This document shows positions 8,299 through 31,495 of a stretch of 32,000 bases of DNA, piece by piece (within the stretch, counting starts at the first letter, position 1; each line of letters begins with the position of its first letter). The notes under the pieces were generated by a model. That model ran no database searches. It was not told the DNA's origin and was given only the letters and a program-made list of their open reading frames with translations. The position numbers and the translations under genes are program-made. The DNA is taken from positions 1,020,001 to 1,052,000 of the forward strand of contig JAXLZO010000001.1 of NCBI GenBank assembly GCA_046350815.1, given 5' to 3'. This DNA is from Candidatus Saccharimonadota bacterium. Its GTDB lineage: Bacteria; Patescibacteriota; Gracilibacteria; BD1-5; UBA2023.

Positions 8299-8718
8299 AT
8301 GCGATATAAAATTCCCGTCCAGATAGAAAATGAGGATACGATTGTATTTGGACTTTCACTGCGCCAACTCATCATCATCGCGGTGGGTGGAGGTTTTGGT
8401 TATAGCCTCTTCAAAACGCTTTCAAATAGTGTTGACCCAACAATGGCTCTTATTTTTGCAAGTCCTATATTCATTATTACACTCGTAGTAGCACTCTTTC
8501 GCAAATCAGAGATGACTTTTCTTCCATTTGTTCTCAACTATCTCCGGCTCAAACTTTCTCCAGTCTCCCGTATGTGGCAGTCTGCCACGGAGTCATTCAG
8601 TGCTCTTGAGGTGTGATACGTCACAAGCTCTGATATTGTTGAGAAAAAAAGCGAAAATACGAAATGATGAAATTCAGAGGTATTCGAAAATGTAGAAGAC
8701 AAACTCAAAAAACTATAA
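8299..8718 (+). CDS. PrgI-family (VirB3-like) small membrane protein
   Basis: The N-terminus MRYKIPVQIENEDTIVFGLSLRQLIIIAVGGGFGYSLF followed by a second TM span is the PrgI-family pattern as I recall it. The frame extends through TGA 8614-8616 to TAA 8716-8718. Confidence 0.5.
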
Positions 8719-8782
8719 ATTGACTTATAGTTTTTTTGTTTATGATAATTCAAGTTCCATATATCGTACCAAGGAGAACGAT

Positions 8783-9253
8783 ATGAACAAAATCCCAACA
8801 ACTTGCCAAGCATATGTGCGACAAACTGCAGTATGGTACACTGGTGATGGTACGTCAGTGGAGAGGGAAATAGCATCAGATGATATTGCAATGATATTGG
8901 GAAGCAGGCCAAGCAAAGATTTTGGCGCTGTTTCTCTATTCAAGCAAGCATTTGCAAATTTTGGTGCTCAATCTCTCAAGGGTGACAGCTTTGATACGAG
9001 GACATACCTTGTGGATGCGACTGTACATACTCGTGAAGAATTTATTGCGATATGTACAGATCAAGACATTAAAAAGACGCTCCTTGAGGAAGAAAGATCA
9101 CATCCACCTGTAGTGGAAGTGAAATTTATTCACTTCGGAAAGCGATGGATGTGCGCCAACCCGGAAACCTTCGTATATATCAGTAGTGCAACTCAGGATT
9201 GACATTCAAGGAAGGAGAGGAACCCCTCAGAAATGAGGGGTTTAATAAACTAA
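8783..9253 (+). CDS. Hypothetical protein (139 aa to TGA 9200-9202; 156 aa if UGA is read as Gly)
   Basis: A strong SD (AAGGAG) lies 6 nt before ATG 8783. The interior is TGA-free. A hairpin at 9221-9242 lies inside the table-25 extension. Confidence 0.55.
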
Positions 9254-9371
9254 AGATAATGAAAGGGGGAACTTGTTTTTCTATTTTAGAGAATATAATG
9301 AGCAAATCCGAACAAAATACGAAACCTATATCTTCTATTCTTATCGGATGAGAATAGAGAGGAGAGATGTA

Positions 9372-9653
9372 ATGACCGTAGTAGCAATCATGAGTACCGA
9401 TGATTTCCTCGTGCAAATGGAGGCACACCTGAGGGAATACGATCGTCAGTTGTCTGGTGTGCAACTTGAAAAAATTCATCGGAAAGCAGTTCAGACATTT
9501 GGGATCAATGGGATCAACGTGTACCTGGAAGAATACCAAATGCTCATGCTCAAATGGATGCAAGAGGACGGATATCAAACCTGGAGGAACCTTACTCGCC
9601 CTTGGTCAATCAGGCAAATCAAACATTCGCTTGAGTCACCCGAGAGCGAATAA
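9372..9653 (+). CDS. Hypothetical protein (93 aa)
   Basis: GGAGAG lies upstream of ATG 9372. The frame is TGA-free, ends in TAA and is followed by the 9672-9697 hairpin. Confidence 0.45.
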   Translation: MTVVAIMSTDDFLVQMEAHLREYDRQLSGVQLEKIHRKAVQTFGINGINVYLEEYQMLMLKWMQEDGYQTWRNLTRPWSIRQIKHSLESPESE

Positions 9654-9671
9654 GATTCATTACTTAAATAA

Positions 9672-9697
9672 AAAAACCTCGTTTCCACGAGGTTTTA
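9672..9697. terminator. Bidirectional terminator hairpin between convergent genes
   Basis: AAAAACCTCG-TTTCCA-CGAGGTTTT. The lepA stop codon (9695-9697) touches the stem. Confidence 0.6.
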
Positions 9698-11596
9698 CTT
9701 TTTCAGAATCTTCACGAATGTCTCTGATGGGATTGATACCTTTCAGAACATTTTCATTTTCTTCTTTCCTTCTTTCTGTTTTTCGAGAAGTTTTCTCTTA
9801 CGTGATATATCACCACCGTAGAGTTTTGCTGTGACATCTTTACGAAGTGCAGATATATCTTCGCGTGCAATCACCGTATTTCCTAAGGCTGCCTGGATCG
9901 TGATCGCAAACTGAGCCTTTGGTATCTCATCTCGTAGTTTTTTTGTAATACGTGTACCAACGCCTCGAGCCTTGTCACGATGGACAATAGTAGAGAATGC
10001 ATCAACTCGCTCCCCCGCTACCAGAATATCAAGCTTTTCGAGCGTATCAGCTTGGTATCTCAGAAACTCATAGCTCATACTTGCATATCCAGACGTTACT
10101 GATTTGAGGTCATCATAGAAATCACCCACTAATTCAGCCATCGGAATTTCATAATGAATCACCGCACGATTCTGATCGAGAAATTGTTGATTCTTCATCA
10201 TACCTCGATGGTCCTGTGCAAGTTCAATAACATTCCCTATAAATTCCTTTGGTGTTATAAGCTCCACTTTTGCTATTGGCTCTTGAATCTCAATATACAT
10301 TCATGGTGCTGGAAGCTCCTCAGGATTAGAGATCATTACTGCTGTCGCAACCGTACCAGCATATTTGCTCGTTGAAGGAACTTCAATAATTTCTGGAGAA
10401 TGACGTGGATAAAACTGCGCTTTATCACCAGGAACCAGAACTCGAAATGTTACCTGAGGACTCGTCATAATTACATCCATAGCATGTTCACGCCAAAGAC
10501 GTTCCTTTACGATATCAAGATGGAGAAGCCCCAAGAATCCACAACGAAAACCATGACCAAGAGCAGGAGACACTTCCGGCTCAACAACAAGCGATGAATC
10601 GTTGAGCATAAGTTTATCGATAGCATCTTTGAGTTTTGGGTATTCATCCGTCTCAACTGGATATACTCCAGCAAAGATAAAAGGAGAAATGCGTTTGAAC
10701 CCAGCAATTGCTTTTTTATCCTCAGGAGCTCATCGATAAACCGTATCACCTACCTGGGCATCGCGAAGAGTCTTGAGTCCGGTAACAATATAACCAATCT
10801 CTCCTTCTCGAAGAATACCGAGAGGATTATACTTTGGTGAAAAACATCCAACTTCAATAGCTTCAATCTTCGCACCTGTGTTGATCATCTCAAGTTTATC
10901 ACCCTTCTTTATCTCTCCTGAAAAAAGTTTGAGATACGTCACGACTCACTTGTACGTATCATACTGCGAATCAAAGATGAGAGCCTTGACTGTGTCAGAT
11001 GGCGTGAGCTCACGGCCCTGCTGTCCAAGCATAACGATCTCAGAATTTCGATCGAGTTTACGAGGCTCGGGTACAAGCTCAATAACAGCATCAAGGATAG
11101 ATGCAACATTCAGCCCTGTCTTTGCTGATACACAGATAATATCATCTCTTCGACATCAGAGTAAGCTCATGACCTCCTGACTCACTCGATCCACATCAGC
11201 AGATGGAAGGTCAATCTTATTGAGCACGGGAATAATCGTGAGATCATGCTCCATGGCAAGATACACATTCGAGAGAGTTTGTGCCTCTATCCCCTGTGAA
11301 GCATCCACAACAAGAATAGCACCCTCAACCGAAGCAAGCGAACGAGAAACCTCATATTGGAAATCCACATGCCCAGGAGTATCGATGAGATTGAGCTCAT
11401 AATCCTTATAGTTCATACGAACTGGAGTGAGCTTGATCGTAATGCCACGTTCACGTTCAAGATCCATAGAATCAAGTGTCTGTGATTCAATATCACGTTT
11501 TTCAAGTGTTCCAGTGATTTCTAAAAGCCTATCAGCAAGAGTAGATTTTCCATGATCGATATGAGCAATAATACAAAAATTTCGAATGCCTTTCAT
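9695..11596 (-). CDS. lepA: Translation elongation factor 4 (LepA)
   Basis: [52 protein letters not shown] and [23 protein letters not shown] are all present. Five in-frame TGAs (11156, 10946, 10730, 10301, 9743) fall at Gly positions, e.g. DTYK-G-VV. The gene ends in TAA. Confidence 0.95.
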
Positions 11597-11660
11597 GAGA
11601 ATAATAAGAAGATATGTGCAGTATAGAGGAAAAGAGGAAAAAGAGAAGAAATCGATTCCA

Positions 11661-11951
11661 CTAAAAAGAAAAGAGCACACAAAGTGCACCCTTCAAAAGA
11701 GAATATATTCAGAGTCGAGTGAATTTTTCATTCCAACCACGAATATAAAGCAATCCATCACGAAAGTCCTGAGGTAACAAGTAAGTACAGTTACCTTTTG
11801 GGGTTAAAGTGATAGTAAATTCATCGCACTCAGCAAGAGAAGAAATGGAAATTTCTGTTTTCTTGGCCGATTCTAAACCATTAAATTGGTTCAAGAAGTG
11901 TATCAAATCATTCAATCTTAATAATGCCTGGTATTTCATATTATCCTCCAA
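11661..11951 (-). CDS. Hypothetical protein (80 aa to TGA 11709-11711; 96 aa under table 25)
   Basis: Open frame with no recognisable motif. Confidence 0.35.
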
Positions 11952-12007
11952 AATAAAAACAACCAGTTACTCTTATTTTAATGAATAGATATGGATTTGT
12001 CAAAATT

Positions 12008-12631
12008 CTACTTTATACTCGTAAACAACTGGTCTTGGGAGAATCGAAATTTTGGACGAGGCATTTCACCTTGTGCACGATATCCTATAGGAAGAAGGAG
12101 TGTTGGAGTGAGATGTTGAGGAAGCGAGAGAATCTCTGCAACCTGACTTGGATCAAATCCCTCCATTGGACAACTATCGATCTCAAGTTCCGCAAGTGCA
12201 GCATGTGCAAAACCAAGAGCAATATACGTCTGCTTTGCAGCCCAATTGAGTGCTCCACCATTCTCAAGAGTACTATGAATGAATCCATGAAGCATATCTT
12301 CAAATCCTTTGAGTTTTGCTCGAACTTCTGGTGATCCACCACTCATTCCATGAAAATATTCTTCTTGATTGGTTCGAAGATCCGTACGTGCGCAGAGGAC
12401 AATCAAATGAGAAGAGGTACTGATTTGCAATTGACCCCATGCAGCGCCTTGGATACGATCCTTGATATCTTGATTTTCGATCACATAGAAGTGATACGGT
12501 TGAAGTCCAAATGATGTTGGAGTCATACGAATCGCTTCAAGAACTTTGCTGAGATCCTCAGATGATACCTTTTTCGTCGGATCAAAAGATTTTGCAGCGT
12601 AACGCCAGTTAAGATTGGAAAGAAAGGACAT
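12008..12631 (-). CDS. NAD(P)H nitroreductase family protein
   Basis: MSFLSNLNWRYAAKSFDPTKKVS...LQPYHFYVI...SCPMEGFD...LLPIGY is the typical NfsB/nitroreductase pattern. The gene has 207 codons with no TGA and a TAG stop. Confidence 0.8.
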   Translation of the reverse strand: MSFLSNLNWRYAAKSFDPTKKVSSEDLSKVLEAIRMTPTSFGLQPYHFYVIENQDIKDRIQGAAWGQLQISTSSHLIVLCARTDLRTNQEEYFHGMSGGSPEVRAKLKGFEDMLHGFIHSTLENGGALNWAAKQTYIALGFAHAALAELEIDSCPMEGFDPSQVAEILSLPQHLTPTLLLPIGYRAQGEMPRPKFRFSQDQLFTSIK

Positions 12632-12695
12632 AAAAAATGATAAATTAATGAAGCTTGAACAGCTTATCTTATTAGTTGAAAAAAGCAACTGATTT

Positions 12696-12986
12696 TTAAA
12701 GAAAAGAAAAACGAGCATAAAGCTCGTCATTCGGGATAGCAAAATTAAGTCAAATCCTCCTTGATATAAGATAGCGAAATGTTGGATCGTTCTTCCTGTA
12801 GTACCAGGTGAACGGGACAAATTCAATCATGCAAGCAAAAAGAAAGAATGCAACCTTAACACTTTCCACTACCGGTTCACCCGGGAGTAAGTAGAAAAAT
12901 AGACTTTCCAATGCCACCAAAAAAATCAGGTTCCAGGGGGATAATATTTTTTTGAACGCCTCACCCGCAGGCGAAAATCGTGCCAT
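12696..12986 (-). CDS. Small hypothetical membrane protein (78 aa to TGA 12750-12752; 96 aa under table 25)
   Basis: An AGGAGG SD precedes ATG 12986. The protein has two hydrophobic spans. Confidence 0.5.
12698..12727 (-). terminator. Rho-independent terminator
   Basis: On the minus strand: ACGAGC-TTTAT-GCTCGT followed by TTTTTCTTTTCTTT. Confidence 0.7.
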
Positions 12987-13070
12987 ACAGACCTCCTAAT
13001 ATTGTTATTTATCCAGCTTGGATTGGATCAATATACGATATTATTCTATTTGTCAATAAAATCTCGTGAT

Positions 13071-13568
13071 TTAAAAAGGTCATCTCTCATCGATACACGA
13101 GAAAATCATATTTTCTACGAGCTCCTTATTTCCTCTATAACCTTTGAGGAATTCCTCAATACCTACGACCTTTCTTGCAAAAGATTCATGGCTTGATTCA
13201 AATGGAAGTAGCTCGTCAACCATTGCATGATAGCAGAGCATGTAAGTGAGTTCATGGGGACTCGATCAAAAATAATCAGATTCGATAACAAGGGCCAAGG
13301 AAATCTCTTTGATAGTTACACACCCCTCTTCCATTGCTTCACGCTTAGCTGTCTCTATAAAATCCATCTCTCATTCCTGTACATGTCCACCCATAATATC
13401 CCATCAACGATCAAGATGAGCAACAACGATCTCACCATCTTCGGTAAAAGGCACAACTCATACGCTTGTTACCTTATCCGGTGAAAAGATAGTATCTGGT
13501 GGAAGGTATCGAAAATGACAGATTTTCTTTAAATCGCGAACGGGTTGTCTGTCTTTTGTAGGAGTCAT
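13071..13568 (-). CDS. Nudix-family hydrolase (variant Nudix box)
   Basis: The table-25 translation contains GGHVQEGEMDFIETAKREAMEEG. This resembles GX5EX7REUXEEXGU but has one extra residue and no spacer before the last Gly. There are several in-frame TGAs and a TAA stop. Confidence 0.55.
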
Positions 13569-13660
13569 ATTTCTCTGAAGAAGTTATACTTTTCTCACAT
13601 CTTATAGATTTTCTTTGAAAATACATTTTCAATATTCACATCCATCATTTCTAGGCAAGA

Positions 13661-14248
13661 CTATATTTTCTGGAACAAATAACTCACTGACACCATTTTT
13701 CTTCATCTCGTGGATTCTGATGGCTCATGTATTTTTGGTTCGGAAGATGAAAGAATATTCCATTTTTGATACAAATCCTGCATTTCTTGTACGTCCGGAA
13801 AATACCAATCTTTTGATACTGGAGAAACAATAGGATCGCTTTCATTCGTAAAGAACGTAAGAGCATGAAATCAACCTGGTTTTGTATGATTCTGCATCTT
13901 TTGAATAATTCATCTCGCTTTACTGAATTCAAGAAAATGGAGCACTCGCATACAGACGAAAGCATCATATATTTCATTAAAGTTATACTCCACAATATCT
14001 CATTCAAGAGTAATAATTCCAAGACCCTCAAGAAGTGATTGAGTACGAATATTTGTCACTGATAAGTCCTGTGCGTACACTTGATGCCCCAACTTTGCAA
14101 GAGGAATACTATTGCGACCATGACCAGCACCAAGATCAAAAATAGAAGATCCTCTGGGAAGATTTTCTGTGAGCAAAGTAACCACTGGATCCATACCATG
14201 TTTTGGATCGAGTATTTCCTGATCACAAGATGGATAATAAGTGTTCAT
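13661..14248 (-). CDS. Class I SAM-dependent methyltransferase (TehB-like)
   Basis: IFDLGAGHGRNSIPLAKLGHQVYAQDLS matches motif I. Continuing across TGA 14000-14002 gives DIVEYNF..DAFVCMRVLHFL..KPGGFHAL. The gene ends in TAG 13661-13663. Confidence 0.75.
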
Positions 14249-14522
14249 AGAAAGTATTGAGAAAGATGAGAAAAGTATACGACTGAGAAATAGAAATCAA
14301 AGCAAAATGAGGAAGATTCTGATCTTCATCAGAATGACATTTTTTGTGTTTTGACTATTTTGGAAAAATCATTTGAAGAAAATAAATATTTGTAGTAAAA
14401 TCCATGCACCAGCTCAAAACAGAGTTCGGAAATAGAAAGAATTTGTATAAATTTTGCAAATTTTTAAAATCAACTATTTTCCCTATTAAGTCAAATAGCT
14501 TGGTAGGGTTTTGGAGAAGATA

Positions 14523-14867
14523 ATGAAAGCGGTATTTTGCGCAATTGCTATGATGGGACAGATGACATCGATAATTTTCTCAATGATGCTACTTGCTGCT
14601 ATATCGATGCAGTACACATCAAAAGAAAATTTCGAATCATATTTGATGGGGCATGCTATATTTCTATTTGGCATGCTTGCAGTAGGGTATATAAATACAA
14701 AGTTCATGATTCTGATGTACAAAATGAATGTATATGATCGTGAAAATCTCATCTATGAAGGAGAGGTTATACGAGAATTTGTAGAGCGCTCCATCAAAAA
14801 ATGAAACCAAAACCCTTTGAAGACTCAGCACAAAGTGCTGAGTCTTTTCTCTTTCTTACCATACTAA
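14523..14867 (+). CDS. Small hypothetical membrane protein (93 aa to TGA 14802-14804; 114 aa under table 25)
   Basis: GGAG lies 8 nt upstream of ATG 14523. The protein is hydrophobic and has a TGA-free interior. Confidence 0.5.
14820..14857 (+). terminator. Strong rho-independent terminator
   Basis: A 12-bp stem AAGACTCAGCAC-AAA-GTGCTGAGTCTT is followed by TTCTCTTTCTT. Confidence 0.8.
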
Positions 14868-15820: not shown

Positions 15821-15835
15821 GATATGATGTCAAAA

Positions 15836-15865
15836 AAATACCCGAGCAGAAACTCGGGTATTTTA
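15836..15865. terminator. Bidirectional terminator hairpin between convergent genes
   Basis: ATACCCGAG-CAGAAA-CTCGGGTAT flanked by A-run and T-run. Confidence 0.65.
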
Positions 15866-15878
15866 TGTATAGCTCCTT

Positions 15879-16448
15879 TCATTTTTCCTGAGCACTCTCC
15901 TCCTGATGATCTGATTCATCAGATTGATCAGTAATAGCAAGAACATCTGCTCTGGTGGCAATTACACCTTCCACGACAAATCGACTAAATAACAGTTCGA
16001 TTACCTTGCCCGTAAAGAAGTCACGGCGACGCCAGAAGACAACAGTAACATTACAGAATTCCACCACCAAGAAACGATGTGTCATATGTACATGCACCAT
16101 CGGACCATGTTCATCATCAAAATACAATTCTCTGGGGATCCAGAGATCGTGTTCTTCAATGAAGTCCAAAAATGCATGCCATGTATCCACGGAAACCTTC
16201 TGCTTTTCCCCCTTGCAGGAGAGAAAAAAAGCAAGTCGCGGATCTTCCGAAACTTTCTCCAGTATACATAATGCAAGTGTATACTCGTAATGATACTTGT
16301 AACCACGCCACCCACGAAGAAGCAACGCCCAGAACATCTGTCCAACAGTACATATCATCGCAAAAAGCGACAATACAACTTCTCCGATCGAACGGAGAAA
16401 CATATCAAAAGCTCTTCGCCCTTGACCATTCGCAACACTCGCCATCAT
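15879..16448 (-). CDS. Hypothetical protein with N-terminal TM segment and acidic C-terminus (189 aa)
   Basis: An AGGAG SD precedes ATGATG 16448-16443. There are no TGA codons and I recognise no family. Confidence 0.55.
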   Translation of the reverse strand: MMASVANGQGRRAFDMFLRSIGEVVLSLFAMICTVGQMFWALLLRGWRGYKYHYEYTLALCILEKVSEDPRLAFFLSCKGEKQKVSVDTWHAFLDFIEEHDLWIPRELYFDDEHGPMVHVHMTHRFLVVEFCNVTVVFWRRRDFFTGKVIELLFSRFVVEGVIATRADVLAITDQSDESDHQEESAQEK

Positions 16449-16510: not shown

Positions 16511-16533
16511 ACCACCCGCTAACTGCGGGTGGT
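16511..16533 (-). terminator. Hairpin overlapping the stop codon of the 16519-16767 gene
   Basis: ACCACCCGC-TAACT-GCGGGTGGT, with the TAG stop in the loop. Confidence 0.45.
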
Positions 16534-16767
16534 TGCGATGTCCGATATAATCCACGTTTTACCAGCATATCGGTAAAACGTTTTTGTTCCCCGGACAAAT
16601 TCCTCTTCGATCTTCTTCGGATCGACAAAAGATCCTTTCAGATCGACTTTCCAACCCTTTGCCTTTGCTTGTACTTCGGCAATGAGCATACCAGGAGCGA
16701 GAAAGATCGCTCCCAGATAATCTCCAAGATCTTGAAGATGAAATGATGTAACATTACGTTTCGCCAT
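16519..16767 (-). CDS. Hypothetical protein (82 aa)
   Basis: A G-rich SD-like AAGGGGG precedes ATG 16767. The frame is TGA-free with a TAG stop. Confidence 0.45.
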   Translation of the reverse strand: MAKRNVTSFHLQDLGDYLGAIFLAPGMLIAEVQAKAKGWKVDLKGSFVDPKKIEEEFVRGTKTFYRYAGKTWIISDIATTRS

Positions 16768-23317: not shown

Positions 23318-23436
23318 GAAAATACAAAAAGTGTAATAAAATGAGAGCTTACAGGTTCTCGCAATTTTTAGAAAAAGTTCTCAACTAAAATAGAGAATTC
23401 CAGGATAGGGAGAAAATGAATTTCGTGAAAAGATTT

Positions 23437-24204
23437 GACTCTAGACAAGCAAACATTTGAATAATTGAGCGTTTCGCTAATCTTCTGAGAAGGAGCCGTA
23501 AGGCTTCTTCTTTCTTATTGCGATAATTATACCGAAACTCGCATTCTTTCAAATGAAGATGAAATTTATCTGCTCGGATTCAGTTTAATTTGATCATTCT
23601 TTGTTTTGCAAAACTCCAAAATGCCTCTATACCGTTTACATGACTTTTTCATCTCGCAAACTTAACGAAGTGTATGCCTGTGTGGTGCATTGTGTGAATG
23701 AAATACTCTATAATGTTCGTATCCATTGAGTATAAGCCCATCATAACTTGTCCAACCATCAGAGTTGACCGTGGATCATTCCAGAACTTTTCCTTGTATA
23801 GTATAGGCATTAATGAGTCTCTACTACAATCTGGAACAATACTTACATAGACATTTCAGTTTCTTTTCTGAAGTCCAAACACTGTGGTGTTTTTCCAGCC
23901 GCTCATCTTCATTGTTTTTCTCTGACTCGTCTTACACCGAAATAACTCTCATCAACTTCAAATTCTCAGAATTCTTTTCAAAACTTTGATGATTCTTCAA
24001 TAGATATTCTCACAATTTCTTCTCGAAATATAGCATAGTACCTGTTAATAGTGTTACGAGATATTTCGAGAAGTTCTGATGTTTGAGTAGCAGTAAAGTC
24101 TCCTAAAAATAGCTTCAAAATTTCTCGTATTTTCTCAGAGCTGATTTTACTGTATTTGATCATATGGAGCTAGTGTAAGAAGATAATTCTTCTTGTCTAG
24201 AGCC
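23437..24204 (-). mobile_element. 768-bp IS1595-like insertion sequence, copy 2 (inverted relative to copy 1; same frameshifted transposase)
   Basis: It reads as the exact reverse complement of 1751-2518 by eye, including the three frameshift sites. The flanks AAGATTT and TAAATAA are not a direct repeat. Confidence 0.85.
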
Positions 24205-24221
24205 TAAATAATTGAAGTGGA

Positions 24222-24529: not shown

Positions 24530-25185
24530 TAAAACCCCCGCCTCTGGTGGGGGAAACACCTAGGTTCTACCGTTCCAACATGTACAAGAAAAAAGGTTAT
24601 GATAGTATCTCTCAAGCAGAGAGTCCCCAGAAGAAGGGTGCTTACTATCATAACCTTTTTTCATTCTTCACTTATGGCTCATACTTCCTTTGATTGTAGC
24701 TACCATATAGTACTTTGCCCAAAGTACCGCAAGAAAATTATATATGGAACTTATAAAACTCAACTCTGAAACATTCTCAATGATCTTCTGAGAGAAATGA
24801 AAATAGAAAAACTCGAATGACATCTTATGAAAGATCACATTCATCTTCAGCTCAAGATACCACCAAGTCTCTCAGTAGCAAAAGTCATAGGTACTCTTAA
24901 ATGAAAATCTGCCATACGACTCCATAATAGATATGCACCAAGAAGAACAGCTCTTGGACACAAACACTTTTGGTCACGATGATACTTCGTACGAACAACA
25001 GGACTCGATATTGAAATGATCAACAACTACATCTGTAACCAAGAGAAAGAAGATATAATTGAGGATGGTAATCAACTTGATCTTCACTTCTAGTCTCACG
25101 CTATCCTAAGTCTCACTATACTTCCCATTCAAGACCCTTCTAGGGTCTCTCTGCTAAAACCCCCTGTTCTACAGGGGGATATTTA
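24530..25185 (+). mobile_element. IS200/IS605-family element carrying tnpA only (boundaries approximate)
   Basis: The tnpA gene is flanked by G/C-rich subterminal hairpins: CCCCCGCC-TCT-GGTGGGGG (24535-24553), AGACCCT-TC-TAGGGTCT (25132-25148) and CCCCCTG-TTCTA-CAGGGGG (25160-25178). A 5'-leader stem of about 19 bp lies at 24589-24661. Confidence 0.65.
24674..25093 (+). CDS. tnpA: IS200/IS605-family Y1 (HUH) transposase TnpA
   Basis: MAHTSFDCSYHIVLCPKYRKK..., DHIHLQLKIPPSLSVAKVIGTLKGKSA, HFWSRGYF and NNYICNQE are present. Four in-frame TGAs fall at Gly positions, and the gene ends in TAG. Confidence 0.85.
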
Positions 25186-25223: not shown

Positions 25224-26738
25224 ATGCCAAAAAATCAAGAATCCACCCAAAACTTTGAAGCTCAGCTCTTCAAGGCCGCTGATAAGCTCCGCAAAAATAT
25301 CGATGCTGCTGAGTACAAAAATGTCGCTCTCGGGCTCATCTTTCTCAAGTATATCTCTGAGAGTTTTCAGGAGCTCTATGATGAGCTTGAGCAGGATGAA
25401 TACGGAGATCCAGAGGATCGTGACGAATACCTTGCAAAAAATATCTTCTTCGTCCCCGAGCAGGCTCGCTGGAAAAATCTCCAAGCAAAAGCAAAGCTTC
25501 CGACTATCGGAATCGAGCTCGACAATGCTATGGAAGCCATAGAAAAAGAAAATCTAGAACTCAGAAATGTCCTCCCGAAAGTCTTCGGAAAACAAAATCT
25601 CGATAAAACCTCACTCGGTGAGCTCATCGACCTCATATCCAATACCGAGCTCAAAACCGCAAGCCATAACTCAAAAGATCTCTTCGGTCGAGTCTATGAA
25701 TACTTCCTCGGGGAATTTGCGAATGCAGAAGGGAAAAAATGAGGACAATTCTACACTCCGAAATCCATCGTGAAACTCATGGTCGAGATGATCGAGCCCT
25801 ACAAAGGACGTGTCTATGACCCAGCGTGTGGAAGCGGTGGTATGTTCGTGATGAGTGAAAAGTTCGTCGAAGAACACCAAGGGAATATCAAAGATATCAC
25901 TATCTATGGGCAAGAGAGCAATCAAACGATATGGAAGCTCTCAAAAATGAATCTTGCGATTCGAAATATCAATTCCCAATTTGTCGCATGGAATACTGAA
26001 GGGTCATTTCTTCGTGATGCCCATCCAGACCTGAAGGCTGATTTTGTTATTGCGAACCCACCATTTAACCAATCCGACTGGGGAGTGGATGTTCTCGCAG
26101 ATGATGCTCGATGGAAATACGGAGTACCACCGTCTGGGAATGCGAATTTCGGATGGATACAACATATGCTCTACCATACTGCTCCAGGCGGTATCGTCGC
26201 AACTGTCCTCGCGAATGGATCACTCTCATCCAATACAAGTGGAGAAGGTGATATTCGTAAGAGACTTATTGAAGCTGATCTTGTCGAGTGTATCGTTGCT
26301 CTCCCGAAACAACTTTTTTACAACACCGGTATCCCAGCATGTATCTGGTTTCTTCGTCGTGAACGCACAGAGAGAAGAGGTGAAGTTCTCTTTATCGATG
26401 CGTCAGAGATGGGATATATGAAAGACCGAGTACACCGCGACCTATCAGAAGATGATATAGAAAAAATTGCTACCACATACCATAACTGGAGAAAGGGTGG
26501 AAATTATGAAAATGTAAAATGATATTGTCACTCTGCGAGTAAGACTGATCTCGAAAAACATGGCTATGTCCTCACTCCTGGACGATATGTAGGTATAACC
26601 GATGTAGTCGATGACGGGATCCCATTTGAGGACAAGATGCGAGATCTCACAGCGAAGCTCTCTGAACAGATGAAGCAAGAGAAACTTCTTGATGAAGAAA
26701 TCAAGAAGCAACTTGCAAAGATAGGATTTGAGATTTAG
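25224..26738 (+). CDS. hsdM: Type I restriction-modification system methyltransferase subunit HsdM (N6-adenine)
   Basis: The N-terminal HsdM domain has [25 protein letters not shown]. Also present are G-GQFYTP (first Gly = TGA 25740-25742), [11 protein letters not shown] and IANPPFN. There are only two in-frame TGAs, and the gene ends in TAG 26736-26738. Confidence 0.92.
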
Positions 26739-26849
26739 TTATATTTCATTTCACAAATTTAATTAAAATAATATTTAGTTTGATTAAGTTTGCATAAATT
26801 AAACTAAAGTATATAGTAGTTATACTTAAAGTATCGAAATATAACTAAC

Positions 26850-27977
26850 ATGCGCTTTATGATTGGAAAATACATTCAACAACCGTCAGGATATACTGCT
26901 TTTATTCCAAATCCATTTCCACCAGATGGAATTTTTGAATTTTCTACAAAAATATATCAAAAACTCTCTGAAGCGGAACGGCTCCTCGGAAAACTCGATG
27001 GACTCTCAAGTCGTCTTCCAGATCTCGATTTTTTTCTTTCGATGTACATACTCAAAGATGCCACTTATTCATCTCAGATAGAGTGAACTCGTGCAACGAT
27101 GATGGATGCTATCGAACTTTCAGCAGGGATTAATGAGAAAAATACAGATGCTGATGATATTCTTCACTATATCGAAGCATTGAACTATTCTATAAACAGA
27201 CTCTCTGAGTTTCCTTTTTCTCTTCGTTTTATCAGAGAGATTCATGAAAAACTCATGATGGGTGCTCGCTCTTCTCACTTCGCAGATCCAGGGAATTTTC
27301 GAAAGTCACAAAACTGGATCGGTGGAACTACTCCAGAAAATGCCCTCTTTGTACCTCCGCCAGTAGAAGTACTTCACACTGCACTCGATGATATTGAAAG
27401 ATTTATCCATAGTACTGAGTGTATACCTCTCTTACAAGTAGGACTTCTGCATGCTCAGTTTGAGACAATCCATCCATTTCTCGATGGAAATGGTCGTACT
27501 GGTCGCATCCTCATAACCCTCTTTCTCTATTCTCGTACGATGCTCGAGAAACCAGTACTTTTCCTCTCTTCTTATTTCAAAAAATATCAACAAGTCTACT
27601 ACGATAGACTCAACGGATACCATAATGGAAAAGTAGAAGAATGGATAGATTTTTTCCTCGATGGTATCATAGAGATCGCACGAGAATCCATAGAGACATC
27701 AAAACAAATCGATACCCTCCGGGATGAAGATATGCAAAAGATTCAATCTCTTGGAAAGAGGGAGGCAGGAAGTGGAGTAAAACTCCTTAATTTCCTCTTC
27801 AGTGAACCACTCGTAACGACCAATACTGTATCAAAGGCACTTTGATTCTCATGGCCTGGATCACAGAAAGCGATTGATAGATTTATCAACCTCAATATTC
27901 TCAGTGCCTACGATGAGACGGAGAAATATGGTAAAAGGTATATCTACAGACGATATATAGATATTTTTAATAATTAA
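26850..27977 (+). CDS. fic: Fic-family protein (AMPylase-type) with N-terminal inhibitory helix motif
   Basis: The Fic motif HPFLDGNGRTGR lies at 27471-27506. The N-terminus has GYTAFIPNPFPP. The inhibitory motif S-S-Q-I-E-G has its Gly encoded by TGA 27084-27086. The C-terminus is winged-helix-like, and the gene ends in TAA 27975-27977. Confidence 0.88.
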
Positions 27978-27983
27978 AAGAAG

Positions 27984-28370
27984 ATGAAAAGAAGTGATGA
28001 AAAACGCATTCTTAAAATTCTCCGTATTATCCTGAATATAGTGTGGTGGATTATTAAATACATTGTTCTATGAATTTACTTCTCAACAAAGTGGATATGG
28101 GGTAGGTGAACGGGGCTCATGAGACAAAAGAAGAGAATATTGTGAATAGCTGTACGAACGCTATCAGTAATTCCGATATATATTATGCTCTGTATATGAA
28201 TCTTCATCTATATACATCGGGAAACATTCAAAGAATGATGAATCAAAGTTGCATGGTGTATCATGACCAAAGGGAAATGCGTCACTCGAGAGATACGGCA
28301 AGATCTACGCCATGATATACTTCAAGATCTCTCATGATCACTCCTCAATAATACGTGATTGACACAATAA
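27984..28370 (+). CDS. Possible small hydrophobic protein between fic and hsdS (doubtful)
   Basis: The table-25 frame runs from ATG 27984 to TAA 28368-28370 with a hydrophobic N-terminus. It contains 8 TGAs in 128 codons, and a competing frame exists at 28106-28315. Confidence 0.2.
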
Positions 28371-28717
28371 CTATGACTATTCACAACACAACGCATATAC
28401 CCGAATGATGGAGAGAAACGACCTTGGGAGAAATTGTCACTATTTGACGTTGATCTTCTCCAAGACCAATACAAGATTATTTATCAGACTTTGGTATACC
28501 ATGGGTTAAGATTTCAGATGCTACAGCCTCTCAAAATAGATTCATTGAATGAACAAAAGAATATATAAAAGAAGAAGGGCGCAGTACTTCTGTTCAACCA
28601 GGTAATCTACTAGTCTCCAATAGTGCAACTCCTTGAATTCCGAAATTTATGAGAATTCATGCTTGCGTACATGACTGATGGTTAGTATTCAGCAACTACA
28701 AAGAATTAAATAATGAT

Positions 28718-29470
28718 GGGTCTAAACCAGTTACGGGTTATATTGACGAAGTAACTTTAGCACTTCCTTATAAATATCTTTTCATTGAATACGACAATTA
28801 TATCTGAATTCAGATTCTTTCAAAAAATAGTAGAAGTAGACTTTCTTGATTCCATTGAATTGAGAGAGTCTTCTTTTGGTATAACTCCAAAATGACTCTA
28901 TTCAATTAATGTGTTGAGTTCATCTTGCAAATTCATTTGCTCCGTGATGAACACGGTAGTGTTTCTCATATCCAATATCTACAAGCCCATCATAAGCTCA
29001 CCATCCATCACTGTTAATCTCAGACTCTTCTATACGAAGTTTTCATCGAATGATTGGCACGAGAGTCCTTGCTTTTACATCAGGAACTATCTCAGTATAT
29101 ACTTTTCAGTTTCTTTTGAGTAAACCAAAGACTATTGTCTTCATACCAGCTCACCTTCCTCTCTTTCATCGGACTCTTGTTGGTCAGAAGTAACTCTCAT
29201 CTATCTCAACATTTCCAGTCCATATTTCATTCTTTTCTCTCTCACAGAGAAAGGCTATCGCCTTTCTGATATATCTATACCAATCCTGTGTTGTTTTTGG
29301 ATTGAGACCTGTTAATACCGCTGTTTTATCTGAAGTAAAATCCAGAGAAAAATATTTCACAATTTCTCTTATTTTTGCATCTCAAATTCGTGATTTTTTC
29401 CTATAGGTAGTTTTACTGATCATAGAGCCAAGTTTATGGGATAATTTATCCTGTCAACTGGTTTAGACCC
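28718..29470 (-). mobile_element. 753-bp IS1595-family insertion sequence (intact copy)
   Basis: Terminal inverted repeats are GGGTCTAAACCAGTT (28718-) and AACTGGTTTAGACCC (-29470). The 7-bp target duplication TAATGAT lies at 28711-28717 and 29471-29477. Confidence 0.9.
28731..29423 (-). CDS. IS1595/ISXO2-like DDE transposase (230 aa, intact under table 25)
   Basis: MISKTTYRKKSRIGDAKIREIVKYF...VEIDESYFGPTRVRGKRGRGAGMKTIVFGLLKRNGKVYTEIVPD...INSDGWGAYDGL...GYEKHYRVHH...HINGIESFWSYTKRRL...ESEFRYN. The TAA stop lies inside the left terminal repeat. Confidence 0.85.
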
Positions 29471-30327
29471 TAATGATTATTTATACTACTTCTTCTTGGA
29501 TTATCGGAGACATCTTGAACATTCCGCATCCTGAACTGTGTTCAAAAATCTTACAACAGATATTGTCAGGCATGTACCAATCCTCCTCCCACCCCTCCCC
29601 GAACAACGAGCTATCGCCGATATACTCTCATCACTCGATGCGAAGATCGAGCTTCTCCGAGATCAGAACGAGATACTAGAGAAGACGGCACAGACCATAT
29701 TCCAAGAGTGGTTTATGGATAATGAAACTTACCCAAGACAACGTTTATGAGATTTAATGATCGTAAAAAGATGATGATCTCCGAGACCAATTCAAGATTA
29801 TCTTCAAGAAAATGGATTAAGATGGTTAAAAATATCTGATGCCTCAGCAACTCAGTGACCGTATATCTTCGAAATTAAAGAGTGCATAAAAGAAGAATGA
29901 TTGAGAAAAACTATTCATTTAGATGCCTGATCACTTGTACTTTCAAATAGTGCAACTCCATGAATTCCAAAGATTCTTGCAGTTGATTCGTGTATACATG
30001 ATGGATGGCTCTATTTTCCAAAATCAAATTTCTCAAATGAATTCCTATTTTTATTATTCCAGACAATCAGACCTTTGCTCATTCAACAATGAAGTGGTAG
30101 TGTATTTACAAACTTGAAGACAGATATTCTAAAAGATTTTGAGGCACCATTACCAGATGATGATATATTAAAGGCATTTGATAATGTTGTAAAACCAATA
30201 TTTTCTAAGATATATAACAACTCGCTCCAAATCCAATCTCTCTCAAAAACTCGCGATACACTTCTGCCGAAGTTGATGAGCGGGGAGGTGAGGGTCGCTT
30301 AATTATTTTTTAACTAACTTTTAATTT

Positions 30328-30576
30328 ATGTTTGAACAAGAAATTAAAAAACTGCAGGAAGTTTTAAAATATTCAAGGTTGTGTAATAATAGTGAACTCT
30401 ATTGGTTAGAATTTAAAACCAAATTTAAAGATGAAGAATCTATGCTTGAGCTGTTAGGGAAAAATATTTCCGGAATAGCAAATTCATGTACCTATAATAA
30501 CTATAAAATCCACTGTAAAAGTGGATTTTTAAAGACAAATGGTGGAGATGACGGGAACTGCCCCCGTGTCCTCTGA
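30328..30576 (+). pseudogene. N-terminal remnant of an AlbA_2 (Schlafen-type) domain protein
   Basis: NSELYWLEFKTKF....LGKNISGIANS resembles the E-x-E-x-LEFK / AFAN signature of AlbA_2 proteins common in R-M loci. Similarity is lost after about 55 aa, and the frame runs through a terminator into the tmRNA gene. Confidence 0.3.
30505..30529. terminator. Terminator hairpin immediately downstream of ssrA
   Basis: A 10-bp stem AAAATCCACT-GTAAA-AGTGGATTTT lies 11 nt beyond the tmRNA CCA end. Confidence 0.7.
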
Positions 30577-30988
30577 GGCTCATTGTATACCGGTACGCTT
30601 ATAGAATATTTGGATTACTCCTATTTCACGAGAAATACTCAAAAAGAAATATGAGACCTTTGTGAATACGAATACCTATCACAAAGAGTGAAAGACTTGA
30701 GTATTCGGTAACTCGAAGATACAACTCATCCCACGAGCACGGTAGAATGTGAGGTTGTGAGCAGACCATCTGGCACTCATCCACAATGTGGAGGCTCTAC
30801 TAGTAATGTATGTGTATTACAGAACTAGGCAAAAGCTGGCGCGAACGCTACCTTTGACTTGAAGGCTGAAAGCCCAGCGAAACTACGTTTTGCAGTTGTT
30901 TTTGTCGGTGTTGATCACAGAAGTCGCCGACACCTCCTGAAGCGAGTAGACAACAAGACTATCTCAAAGTAGAATTCTTATCATCCCC
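30540..30988 (-). ncRNA. ssrA: tmRNA (SsrA), about 449 nt
   Basis: On the minus strand, the 5' GGGGAUG pairs with CAUCUCC-ACCA at the 3' end, giving a 7-bp acceptor stem with the G3:U70 alanine identity pair. The T-arm is ACGGG-GGCAGUU-CCCGU. The 5' GAAUUCUAC resembles the D-loop analogue. The internal tag ORF GCA AAA CGU ... GCC UAG (30893-30825) encodes AKRSFAGLSAFKSKVAFAPAFA and is preceded by an A-rich stretch and a TGTCGG/CCGACA helix. Confidence 0.85.
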
Positions 30989-31008
30989 ATGGAACCAACT
31001 GCACACCC

Positions 31009-31036
31009 AGTATAATGAGAATGCCTTGGTGAGCAA
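31009..31036 (-). promoter_or_regulatory. Candidate sigma-70-type promoter for ssrA
   Basis: On the minus strand: TTGCTC, 16 nt, TATACT, ending about 20 nt upstream of the mature tmRNA 5' end. Confidence 0.35.
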
Positions 31037-31052
31037 GAATTATTATGACAAT

Positions 31053-31385
31053 TTAGCCTTCAGGATCAATATTTGATCCGCGCATACCAATACCACCTCA
31101 CCTGCCAATAGGATGTTCTTCAACGAGTGCACCCAAAGCCTCGAAATAATTATCATTCGCTTCTCAACAACTCTTGCAAATACTCCAATTTGGTTGATGT
31201 GGCTTTCAACATGTTGAACAAGCATGAGAGGCTATCAAATCCACTACAGCTCTTCGAATAGCATGAGAGTATTGATTCAATCCGGCAAGACTTACCTCAG
31301 AATAATCAGGCAATTCTCTATACAACTTAAGTGCAGCACGTTCGATTTCACCACGAGCACGAAATTCAGAAACATTCATGCTCAT
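31053..31385 (-). CDS. Hypothetical zinc-ribbon protein (110 aa, table 25)
   Basis: MSMNVSEFRARGEIERAALKLY...HACSTC-G-KPHQPNWSICKSC-G-EAND. Both Gly residues of the CxxCG knuckles are TGA. The gene ends in TAA 31053-31055. Confidence 0.5.
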
Positions 31386-31495
31386 ATAAACAATAGTTTA
31401 AAAAAATATCAGTGATAGTAATCACGTAAAACTTATTGTCAAAATAGAAAATATCGCATTAAATATTACATAACACTAAATAAAATTATTATTAC

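Follow-up and report, generated by a model that had tools for sequence, protein, structure and literature searches.

Where does a gene end when one of the three stop codons has been given over to an amino acid? The question is raised by a 32,000-nucleotide stretch of a Candidatus Gracilibacteria metagenome-assembled genome (contig JAXLZO010000001.1, positions 1,020,001 to 1,052,000; hereafter the window), in which UGA is read as glycine according to translation table 25 and in which five small genes, denoted a, b, c, d and e, carry TGA in the place where a stop codon might be expected. Each is laid out as a self-contained cassette, with an open reading frame (ORF) led by a Shine-Dalgarno (SD) motif, no internal TGA, and an in-frame TGA before a stable hairpin; the TGA lies 14–21 nucleotides (nt) ahead of the hairpin in all five, and the next in-frame TAA or TAG is met in or past the terminator tail (Table 1). 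The cases a–d had been singled out in a preliminary description of this DNA and are real, every coordinate having been found correct against the sequence, whereas e was added by a systematic scan of SD-led ORFs with a hairpin behind them, whether closed by TAA, TAG or TGA. The comparisons set out below favor, at somewhat better than even probability, an interpretation in which these are UGAs in stop position that are expected to be read through into junk tails or to leave non-stop mRNAs for rescue by transfer-messenger RNA (tmRNA).

The code itself can be read directly from the window genes. In-frame TGA is found at conserved glycine positions of conserved proteins, as code 25 requires: lepA (9695–11596, minus strand) has 10 in-frame TGA sites when four lineages are compared, six of which are GGA, GGG or GGT in another lineage (the LepA proteins being 97.6–98.4% identical), and the TGA at position 8614 in the PrgI gene is GGA in L095, one of the relatives from other samples that are designated here by such L numbers. 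The 33-residue tail that follows the first TGA of PrgI is kept in frame in relatives, where several of its codons have changed synonymously, and thereby provides a positive control for decoding; the same observation rules out PrgI (8299–8718) as a further relic stop. All three TGAs of this gene, an orphan of a type IV secretion family without a VirB4-like neighbor, fall in this tail past the Pfam domain, and the tail is kept in relatives. The genes of the window bear NCBI locus tags U0518_052xx. Since identical sequence is present in several Logan and ENA assemblies, the window TGAs are not assembly errors. The organism occurs in wastewater and activated-sludge samples, and data sets that carry it include SRR26348420-23, ERZ650274 and ERZ937820. 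No tRNA gene was detected in the 32-kb window, and neither prfB nor tRNA-Gly(UCA) is among its genes. None of the BD1-5 genomes examined in the literature is reported to carry prfB, the gene for release factor 2 (RF2; PMC6851277). For another BD1-5 bacterium, proteomics showed that UGA encodes glycine, with zero peptides unique to a database in which UGA was a stop (PMC4032931).

That the cassette ORFs are real genes is shown by their diverged copies, which were collected from other samples by cluster look-up, exhaustive HMMER search, word-based search and metagenome scan. The ratio of nonsynonymous to synonymous divergence (dN/dS) is 0.16 for c (against L105), 0.24 and 0.18 for d, 0.12 for b (against L088) and 0.13 for a2, the small ORF that follows a, with synonymous divergence (dS) in these comparisons ranging from 0.26 to 1.25; for lepA the ratio is 0.016 at dS 0.8–1.1. 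Going by these values, the ORF bodies are coding regions under purifying selection. An identity as non-coding RNA is ruled out both by these ratios and by the lack of any Rfam family between 8.7 and 16.9 kb. The cassette proteins have no match in Pfam, PHROGs, NCBIfam or PADLOC, and a single-sequence AlphaFold model of a was unusable (pLDDT 41).

The ends of these genes in sister code-25 lineages bear most closely on the question. Orthologues of a in L095 and L104, which keep the gene order PrgI–a–a2–lepA, run 4–6 codons further to a TAA placed 8–9 nt before a GC-rich hairpin of their own. At the b locus of L089, flanks of about 93% identity enclose a b allele of 35% identity in which TAG closes the aligned C-terminus, ahead of the same ACGAGC/GCTCGT hairpin and T-tract as in the window. 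In L105 and L107, c (82% amino acid identity) has TAA at the identical codon (AAAAAATAAGAAACC versus AAAAAAT--GAAACC), and the 2-nt indel between the two states makes the downstream frame differ, even as the stem shows a compensatory change from a C-G to a T-A pair in L105. The L099/L100–L104 lineage retains TGA at the same codon of d at about 60% amino acid identity, with a 1-nt indel directly after it that shifts the frame of the tail (16 residues versus gYIFFgRAHFVCSFFLKIAC); the hairpin is retained, its stem having been kept despite several sequence changes. The companion gene a2 ends with TAA in the window and in L095. In L104 this codon is the first of a tandem TGA-TGA, behind which comes the bidirectional lepA terminator; the TGATGA is seen in L104 only, one of three lineages, and the TGA state looks derived. 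The sister orthologues stop at or within about 2–6 codons of the TGA with TAA (a, c) or TAG (b), which marks the TGA as the true end of the conserved ORF.

The stretch beyond the TGA behaves differently. The tails of a and b are not alignable between lineages, the tail of d changes frame behind its retained TGA, and flips of the hairpin loop (AAA versus TTT) in c and d alter tail residues and leave the stem unchanged. A search for conservation of the extensions in other code-25 genomes, which would have spoken against the preliminary description, found none; the 16–21-residue extensions predicted under code 25 are not conserved protein. From the alignments, the conserved protein can be seen to end at the TGA, with the extension evolving as terminator RNA rather than as peptide, and TGA, TAA and TAG can be seen to replace one another at the stop slot within a clade in which UGA is glycine. 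Internal TGA is absent from all members of these families in all lineages (54 GGN glycine codons, 0 TGA), whereas lepA swaps TGA and GGN freely over the same divergence, a difference that hints at an ongoing avoidance of UGA inside these small genes. As a separate observation, the hairpin loops are exact complements between strains (c in L087:1306–1332; d in L100 and L102–L104), and the AAA/TTT difference could stem from a palindrome flip or from a strand switch during assembly.

The ordinary genes of the window provide the contrast. As had been remarked for lepA, the M48 protease, the bPH protein and the DEAD helicase, and as holds likewise for a2 and PrgI, these genes have TAA or TAG before or at their hairpins. 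Altogether, the gene-end terminators of the window come after TAA/TAG in six cases and after TGA in five, and the gap from TAA/TAG to hairpin in the control genes (12–19 nt) is near that of the TGA cases. Every gene-end hairpin that lies within a code-25 ORF has an in-frame TGA 14–21 nt upstream of it; with TGA making up 1.8% of codons, the chance of this is about 9% per hairpin for a 5-codon window, and about 5e-6 for five of five. Glycine in the five ORF bodies is written as GGN 28 times and never as TGA, as against 122 TGA among the 516 glycine codons (23.6%) of 17 ordinary window genes; if a, a2, b, c, d, e, the ORF upstream of e and the neighboring nitroreductase are taken together, the count is 53 GGN and 0 TGA. 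A Fisher test on the TGA content of the bodies is post hoc, and the TGA-free state is partly circular in that each body was defined as ending at its first TGA; the point is kept because the starts (SD and ATG) and the hairpins were defined without reference to TGA. In two other Gracilibacteria (L091 and L093; lepA 72–76% identical in amino acids), which have neither synteny with the window nor these families, all four gene-end terminators follow TAA/TAG; L092, from a standard-code organism, was left out. A lepA scan of genome contigs gave, among the matches listed, only distant relatives (≤56% identity) and no homologues of a–d.

The hairpins are significantly stable and of the kind that would end a transcript. 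Those of b, c, d and e fit an intrinsic terminator with a GC stem-loop and T-tract (folding free energy dG −13 to −20 kcal/mol, z-score −2.8 to −5.6), and those of b, c and d rank among the top terminator-like matches of the region; the hairpin of a combines a strong stem with a weak T tail (TTTAATAAA). The gene d, previously taken for the weaker case and given a start at 11951, has a 9–11-bp hairpin followed by a T-tract, together with the best promoter-like site of the region, and its SD-led start is the ATG at 11939. The span from UGA to the next stop covers 16–41 codons across the five cases, being longest in e, where 41 codons pass before an in-frame stop is reached (15758–15756) within the convergent bPH gene. 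No context other than the hairpin is common to the terminal UGAs, the +4 base being C, C, A, A and A in the window and T, T and G in relatives.

In the reading that we favor, each locus would be an ordinary small-gene cassette of promoter, SD, ORF and intrinsic terminator, in which the selected coding region closes at a UGA in the stop slot and the stretch from this UGA to the next UAA/UAG is a 3' untranslated terminator region. Given a cognate glycine tRNA and no RF2, the ribosome would insert glycine at the UGA and enter the terminator, and read-through of this kind would yield glycine-spanning peptides such as ATQDGHSR, RIGLNFAIPNDELYAR and LGIYSLLK. Intrinsic termination usually frees the RNA about 7–9 nt past the stem. 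The distance from the last stem pair to the first base of the in-frame stop is 7 nt in d, 8 in a, 12 in b, 18 in c and 77 in e, so that the terminated transcripts of b, c and e would be without a stop codon, with a and d on the borderline. Ribosomes on the stop-less transcripts would reach the 3' end, to be followed by tmRNA rescue, and transcripts that pass the terminator would have an unconserved tail of 16–41 residues added to their product, rich in Phe, Leu and Ser on account of the T-tract. The cassettes would then represent a fast-evolving, recombining accessory gene set of the clade, written in a standard-code grammar, i.e., with no internal TGA and with TGA, TAA and TAG interchangeable at the end of the ORF.

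A bona fide tmRNA gene, with a plausible degradation tag, is present in the window itself (Table 1); it has a long insertion after the tag region and was missed by ARAGORN. Two ORFs that overlap it, 30328–30711 and 30810–31418, are spurious. A parallel might be struck with the recoded Escherichia coli lacking release factor 1 (RF1), in which read-through, tmRNA tagging and degradation were demonstrated experimentally for the products of genes that close with an unassigned stop codon (Ma et al. 2018, eLife, PMC6207430). Read-through to the mRNA 3' end, with rescue by tmRNA, ArfA or ArfB and degradation, would be the shared feature, as observed in that strain and inferred here; however, the codon there is unassigned and the genes are foreign, whereas here a cognate glycine tRNA is expected and the genes are long-term residents under purifying selection.

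Several observations sit uneasily with simple read-through. Both the addition of tails and tagging should lower the yield of functional protein, and a UGA end would be costly if read through, yet d keeps it between lineages that a dS of about 1.25 separates, and TGA stands at roughly half of the gene ends of this class. Were the stops merely lost, other sense codons should be left in the slot at least as often, and none is found there in the five window cases or in the seven counted with relatives. Nor does simple read-through predict the lack of internal TGA in the orthologues noted above. The transcript ends and peptides of these loci are, moreover, deduced from sequence comparison. The tension between a cost in yield and the purifying selection on the bodies, together with the TGA retained in d, keeps residual or position-dependent termination and an arfA-like use of non-stop messages among the candidates.

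What else might have put UGA in the stop slot? The preliminary description took the UGAs for relics, now read through, in genes acquired from standard-code donors, whether bacteria or phages. The part of this concerning stop-position UGAs with unconserved tails stands, but the foreign origin finds no support, and we regard it as unlikely. It would account for the TGA-free bodies and the self-contained promoter–terminator units, and it agrees with the slightly atypical codon usage and GC content at third codon positions in a2, b, d and e, with the swap of b for a 35%-identical allele between strains sharing 93% identical flanks, and with the TGA-poor hsdM and Fic genes of the window. TGA-free phages compatible with code 11 and predicted to infect Gracilibacteria have also been published (Liu et al. 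2023, mBio, PMC10746230), placing on record a code-neutral gene pool around these bacteria. Like the cassettes, their genes have the same reading in codes 11 and 25 up to the end; however, the cassettes are chromosomal, beside lepA and the NUDIX gene, and have no viral relatives, and where the phages cluster their stops at the gene end, the back-up TAA/TAG of the window genes is 16–41 codons off, in or past the terminator tail. Against a donor, moreover, no homologue from outside the clade was found in the protein and viral-contig searches. An exhaustive HMMER search with a through 1.84 billion representatives returned only two proteins, both on Gracilibacteria contigs with PrgI and lepA synteny (the one distant homologue of a is P0143); c has relatives only within the clade; and five scans of viral contigs (IMG/VR) gave no relatives of the cassette genes. 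With no IMG/VR relatives, no PHROG match and a chromosomal, syntenic context, a phage or mobile-element origin is not indicated. Rather, the adjacency of a, a2 and d to lepA in lineages at dS of about 0.6–1.25 marks them as old residents and not recent arrivals, and the TGA state of a2, restricted to one of three lineages, is likewise hard to reconcile with a relic.

Slightly less probable to our mind is that stop codons were simply lost within the code-25 lineage, through a TAA to TGA transition or a small indel, with the short tails being tolerated and TGA having no special meaning. A single A/G transition separates TAA from TGA, the two states of c are set apart by an indel of 2 nt where the sequence is rich in A, and, with a stop to be met by chance after about 20 codons at this base composition, the 16–41 codons to the next stop are as expected. 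Yet such a process should give TGA in no more than roughly a quarter to 40% of cases, and it is observed in five of five (seven of seven with relatives); further, it leaves the missing internal TGA and the retention of TGA in d unexplained, and the transcripts of b, c and e would probably be stop-less, which is not neutral.

A different solution would be a UGA of dual meaning, standing for glycine inside most genes and acting as a signal for termination, or release, where the mRNA 3' end or the terminator follows within a few codons. Position-dependent ambiguous stop codons of this kind are known from ciliates and trypanosomatids (Condylostoma, Parduczia, Blastocrithidia), where, as here, one codon is sense internally and also stands at ORF ends near the mRNA 3' end; those systems, however, are eukaryotic, with eRF1 and poly(A)-binding protein, and the window offers the sequence pattern only. 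To our knowledge, there is no bacterial example, nor do we know of a mechanism in bacteria. Several of the observations above would fall into place: the turnover of TGA, TAA and TAG at one codon in c and a2, as among synonymous stops; the tandem TGATGA ending a2 in L104; the d that keeps its TGA as its tail changes frame; the lack of any other sense codon in the slot; and the avoidance of internal TGA throughout the families, over a dS of about 1. Set against these are the reported loss of prfB from all BD1-5 genomes and the lack of peptides unique to UGA as stop in another BD1-5 bacterium (both cited above), the clear decoding of UGA by neighboring genes of the same genome, and the want of a common sequence context around the terminal UGAs. 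That UGA is incompletely reassigned, ending translation by termination or by deliberate entry into rescue near the terminators of small genes, with selection keeping UGA out of the gene bodies and letting it alternate with UAA/UAG at their ends, appears quite unlikely, as does the dual meaning itself.

The candidate that we hold least probable, by a wide measure doubtful, is programmed non-stop expression after the logic of arfA, in which the proteins are normally tmRNA-tagged and destroyed and accumulate only when trans-translation is saturated. The mRNAs of arfA-type genes reportedly lack a stop owing to a hairpin or terminator inside the ORF. The likeness lies in the terminator hairpin upstream of an in-frame stop (in five of five cases), the tmRNA system in the window, with a tag ending in AFA, and the TGA retained in d. 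However, the cassette proteins are unrelated in sequence to ArfA or to any known family (Pfam, NCBIfam), their orthologues with ordinary TAA/TAG ends show that the arrangement is not required, and five unrelated proteins would need one common regulation. With the UGA-to-glycine code itself, the window has in common the TGA at glycine sites of lepA and PrgI, swapping with GGN between lineages; it differs in its five small genes with TGA in the stop slot, alternating with TAA/TAG.

Table 1. Features of the five cassettes and associated elements in the window (positions on the 32,000-nt stretch; dG in kcal/mol)
Feature	Position	Strand	Remarks
Promoter-like site of a	8720–8749	+	TTGACT-18-GATAAT; then SD AAGGAG 8771–8776
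ORF a body	8783–9199	+	ATG 8783; 139 aa; TGA-free; no known family
Stop-position TGA of a	9200–9202	+	TAA 4–6 codons later in L095 and L104 orthologues
Hairpin after a	9220–9243	+	10 bp; GAAA loop; dG −17; z −3.6; in-frame TAA 9251–9253
ORF a2	9372–9653	+	93 aa; TGA-free; TAA end; then bidirectional terminator 9673–9696
Stop-position TGA of d	11709–11711	−	Same codon TGA in L099/L100–L104 lineage
ORF d body	11712–11939	−	76 aa; SD GGAGGA; TGA-free
Terminator hairpin of d and T-tract	11670–11694	−	9–11 bp; dG −13.7; z −2.8; in-frame TAG 11663–11661
Promoter-like site of d	11975–12003	−	TTGACA-17-TAAAAT; 11/12 matches; best in region
ORF b body	12753–12986	−	ATG 12986; 78 aa; SD AGGAGG; putative small membrane protein
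Stop-position TGA of b	12750–12752	−	TAG at aligned C-terminus in divergent L089 allele
Terminator hairpin of b and T-tract	12710–12728	−	dG −13.3; z −3.8; in-frame TAA 12698–12696
ORF c body	14523–14801	+	ATG 14523; 93 aa; putative small membrane protein
Stop-position TGA of c	14802–14804	+	TAA at identical codon in L105/L107
Terminator hairpin of c and T-tract	14819–14847	+	13 bp; dG −19.9; z −5.6; in-frame TAA 14865–14867
ORF e body	15882–16448	−	189 aa; SD GAGGAG; TGA-free; absent from preliminary description
Stop-position TGA of e	15879–15881	−	Upstream of bidirectional terminator
Bidirectional terminator of e and convergent bPH gene	15835–15864	−	dG −18.6; z −4.6
TGA-free ORF upstream of e	16519–16767	−	82 aa; TAG end
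tmRNA gene	30540–30988	−	Rfam RF00023, 60 bits; ~449 nt; tag AKRSFAGLSAFKSKVAFAPAFA ending at TAG

Some of the loci around the cassettes show traces of exchange and rearrangement. At the b locus, the swapped allele (12750–12986 versus L089:1130–1384; 35% protein identity within flanks about 93% identical) was clearly exchanged between strains as a unit, and in L085 and L088 the difference in b is confined to the first ~35 codons and is mostly synonymous; b accordingly looks like a hypervariable, recombining small membrane-protein locus. The nitroreductase gene next to it (12008–12631, minus strand; 207 aa) has 14 glycine codons, zero TGA and a TAG end; it is found in the lineage of the window and in L089/L101, does not precede d in the L104 lineage, and in a tblastn search against plasmids gave best matches of 40–44% identity from which no donor could be inferred. 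The NUDIX gene (13071–13568, minus strand) ends GAA AGA TGA CCT TTT TAA, with the TGA two codons before TAA; closely spaced different stops of this sort are the pattern described for code-neutral phage genes. In L095, a very hydrophobic SD-led ORF of 25 codons (1806–1883; VERKIMVAFAMPLIMGIAFVMALII), which resembles a small toxin-like peptide, reaches its TGA within the 3' arm of a terminator hairpin, and TAA follows in frame five codons later; it is missing from the shorter a–a2 spacer of the window.

The region of all five cassettes is bracketed by two inverted copies of an insertion sequence (1750–2522 and 23433–24205; 773 nt each, 100% identical, 20.9 kb apart), which encode a two-part transposase with in-frame TGAs; such a pair could mediate inversion of the DNA between them. 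Beyond it lie an IS200/IS605-type TnpA gene with four in-frame TGAs (24599–25093), followed by a GC-rich hairpin (25160–25178), and a type I restriction-modification locus (25224–30302), where hsdM and a Fic-domain gene are TGA-poor, with two TGA each, and two hsdS-like genes are TGA-rich and associated with a 71-nt direct repeat (28611–28681, 29938–30008). A 129-nt repeat (1–129, 29359–29487) ties this locus to the start of the window, and in L089 hsdS-like sequence runs straight into the NUDIX region, from which it follows that the area rearranges between strains.

The pattern sits within known phenomena, namely the UGA-to-glycine code, code-neutral genes and the rescue of stop-less messages. 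Nevertheless, the change of UGA to a glycine codon in Gracilibacteria and Absconditabacteria has been regarded as complete and as a barrier to gene flow, and this published picture does not cover a UGA in the stop slot that alternates with UAA/UAG. If these UGAs are read through, then, for an entire class of accessory proteins, these bacteria would tolerate messages that lack a stop and tails that are junk, or even turn them to use, which would make them a natural counterpart of the engineered recoded E. coli. There is also a small but real chance that the reassignment of UGA is incomplete in a bacterium; in that event UGA would keep a terminating role near mRNA ends, and its dual meaning would be the first position-dependent one for a codon in bacteria. 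Either way, annotation under code 25, which gives 156 aa for a (MFO0764217.1), 96 aa for b and 249 aa for e (MFO0764226.1) in the NCBI records, adds C-terminal residues that lie outside the conserved protein.

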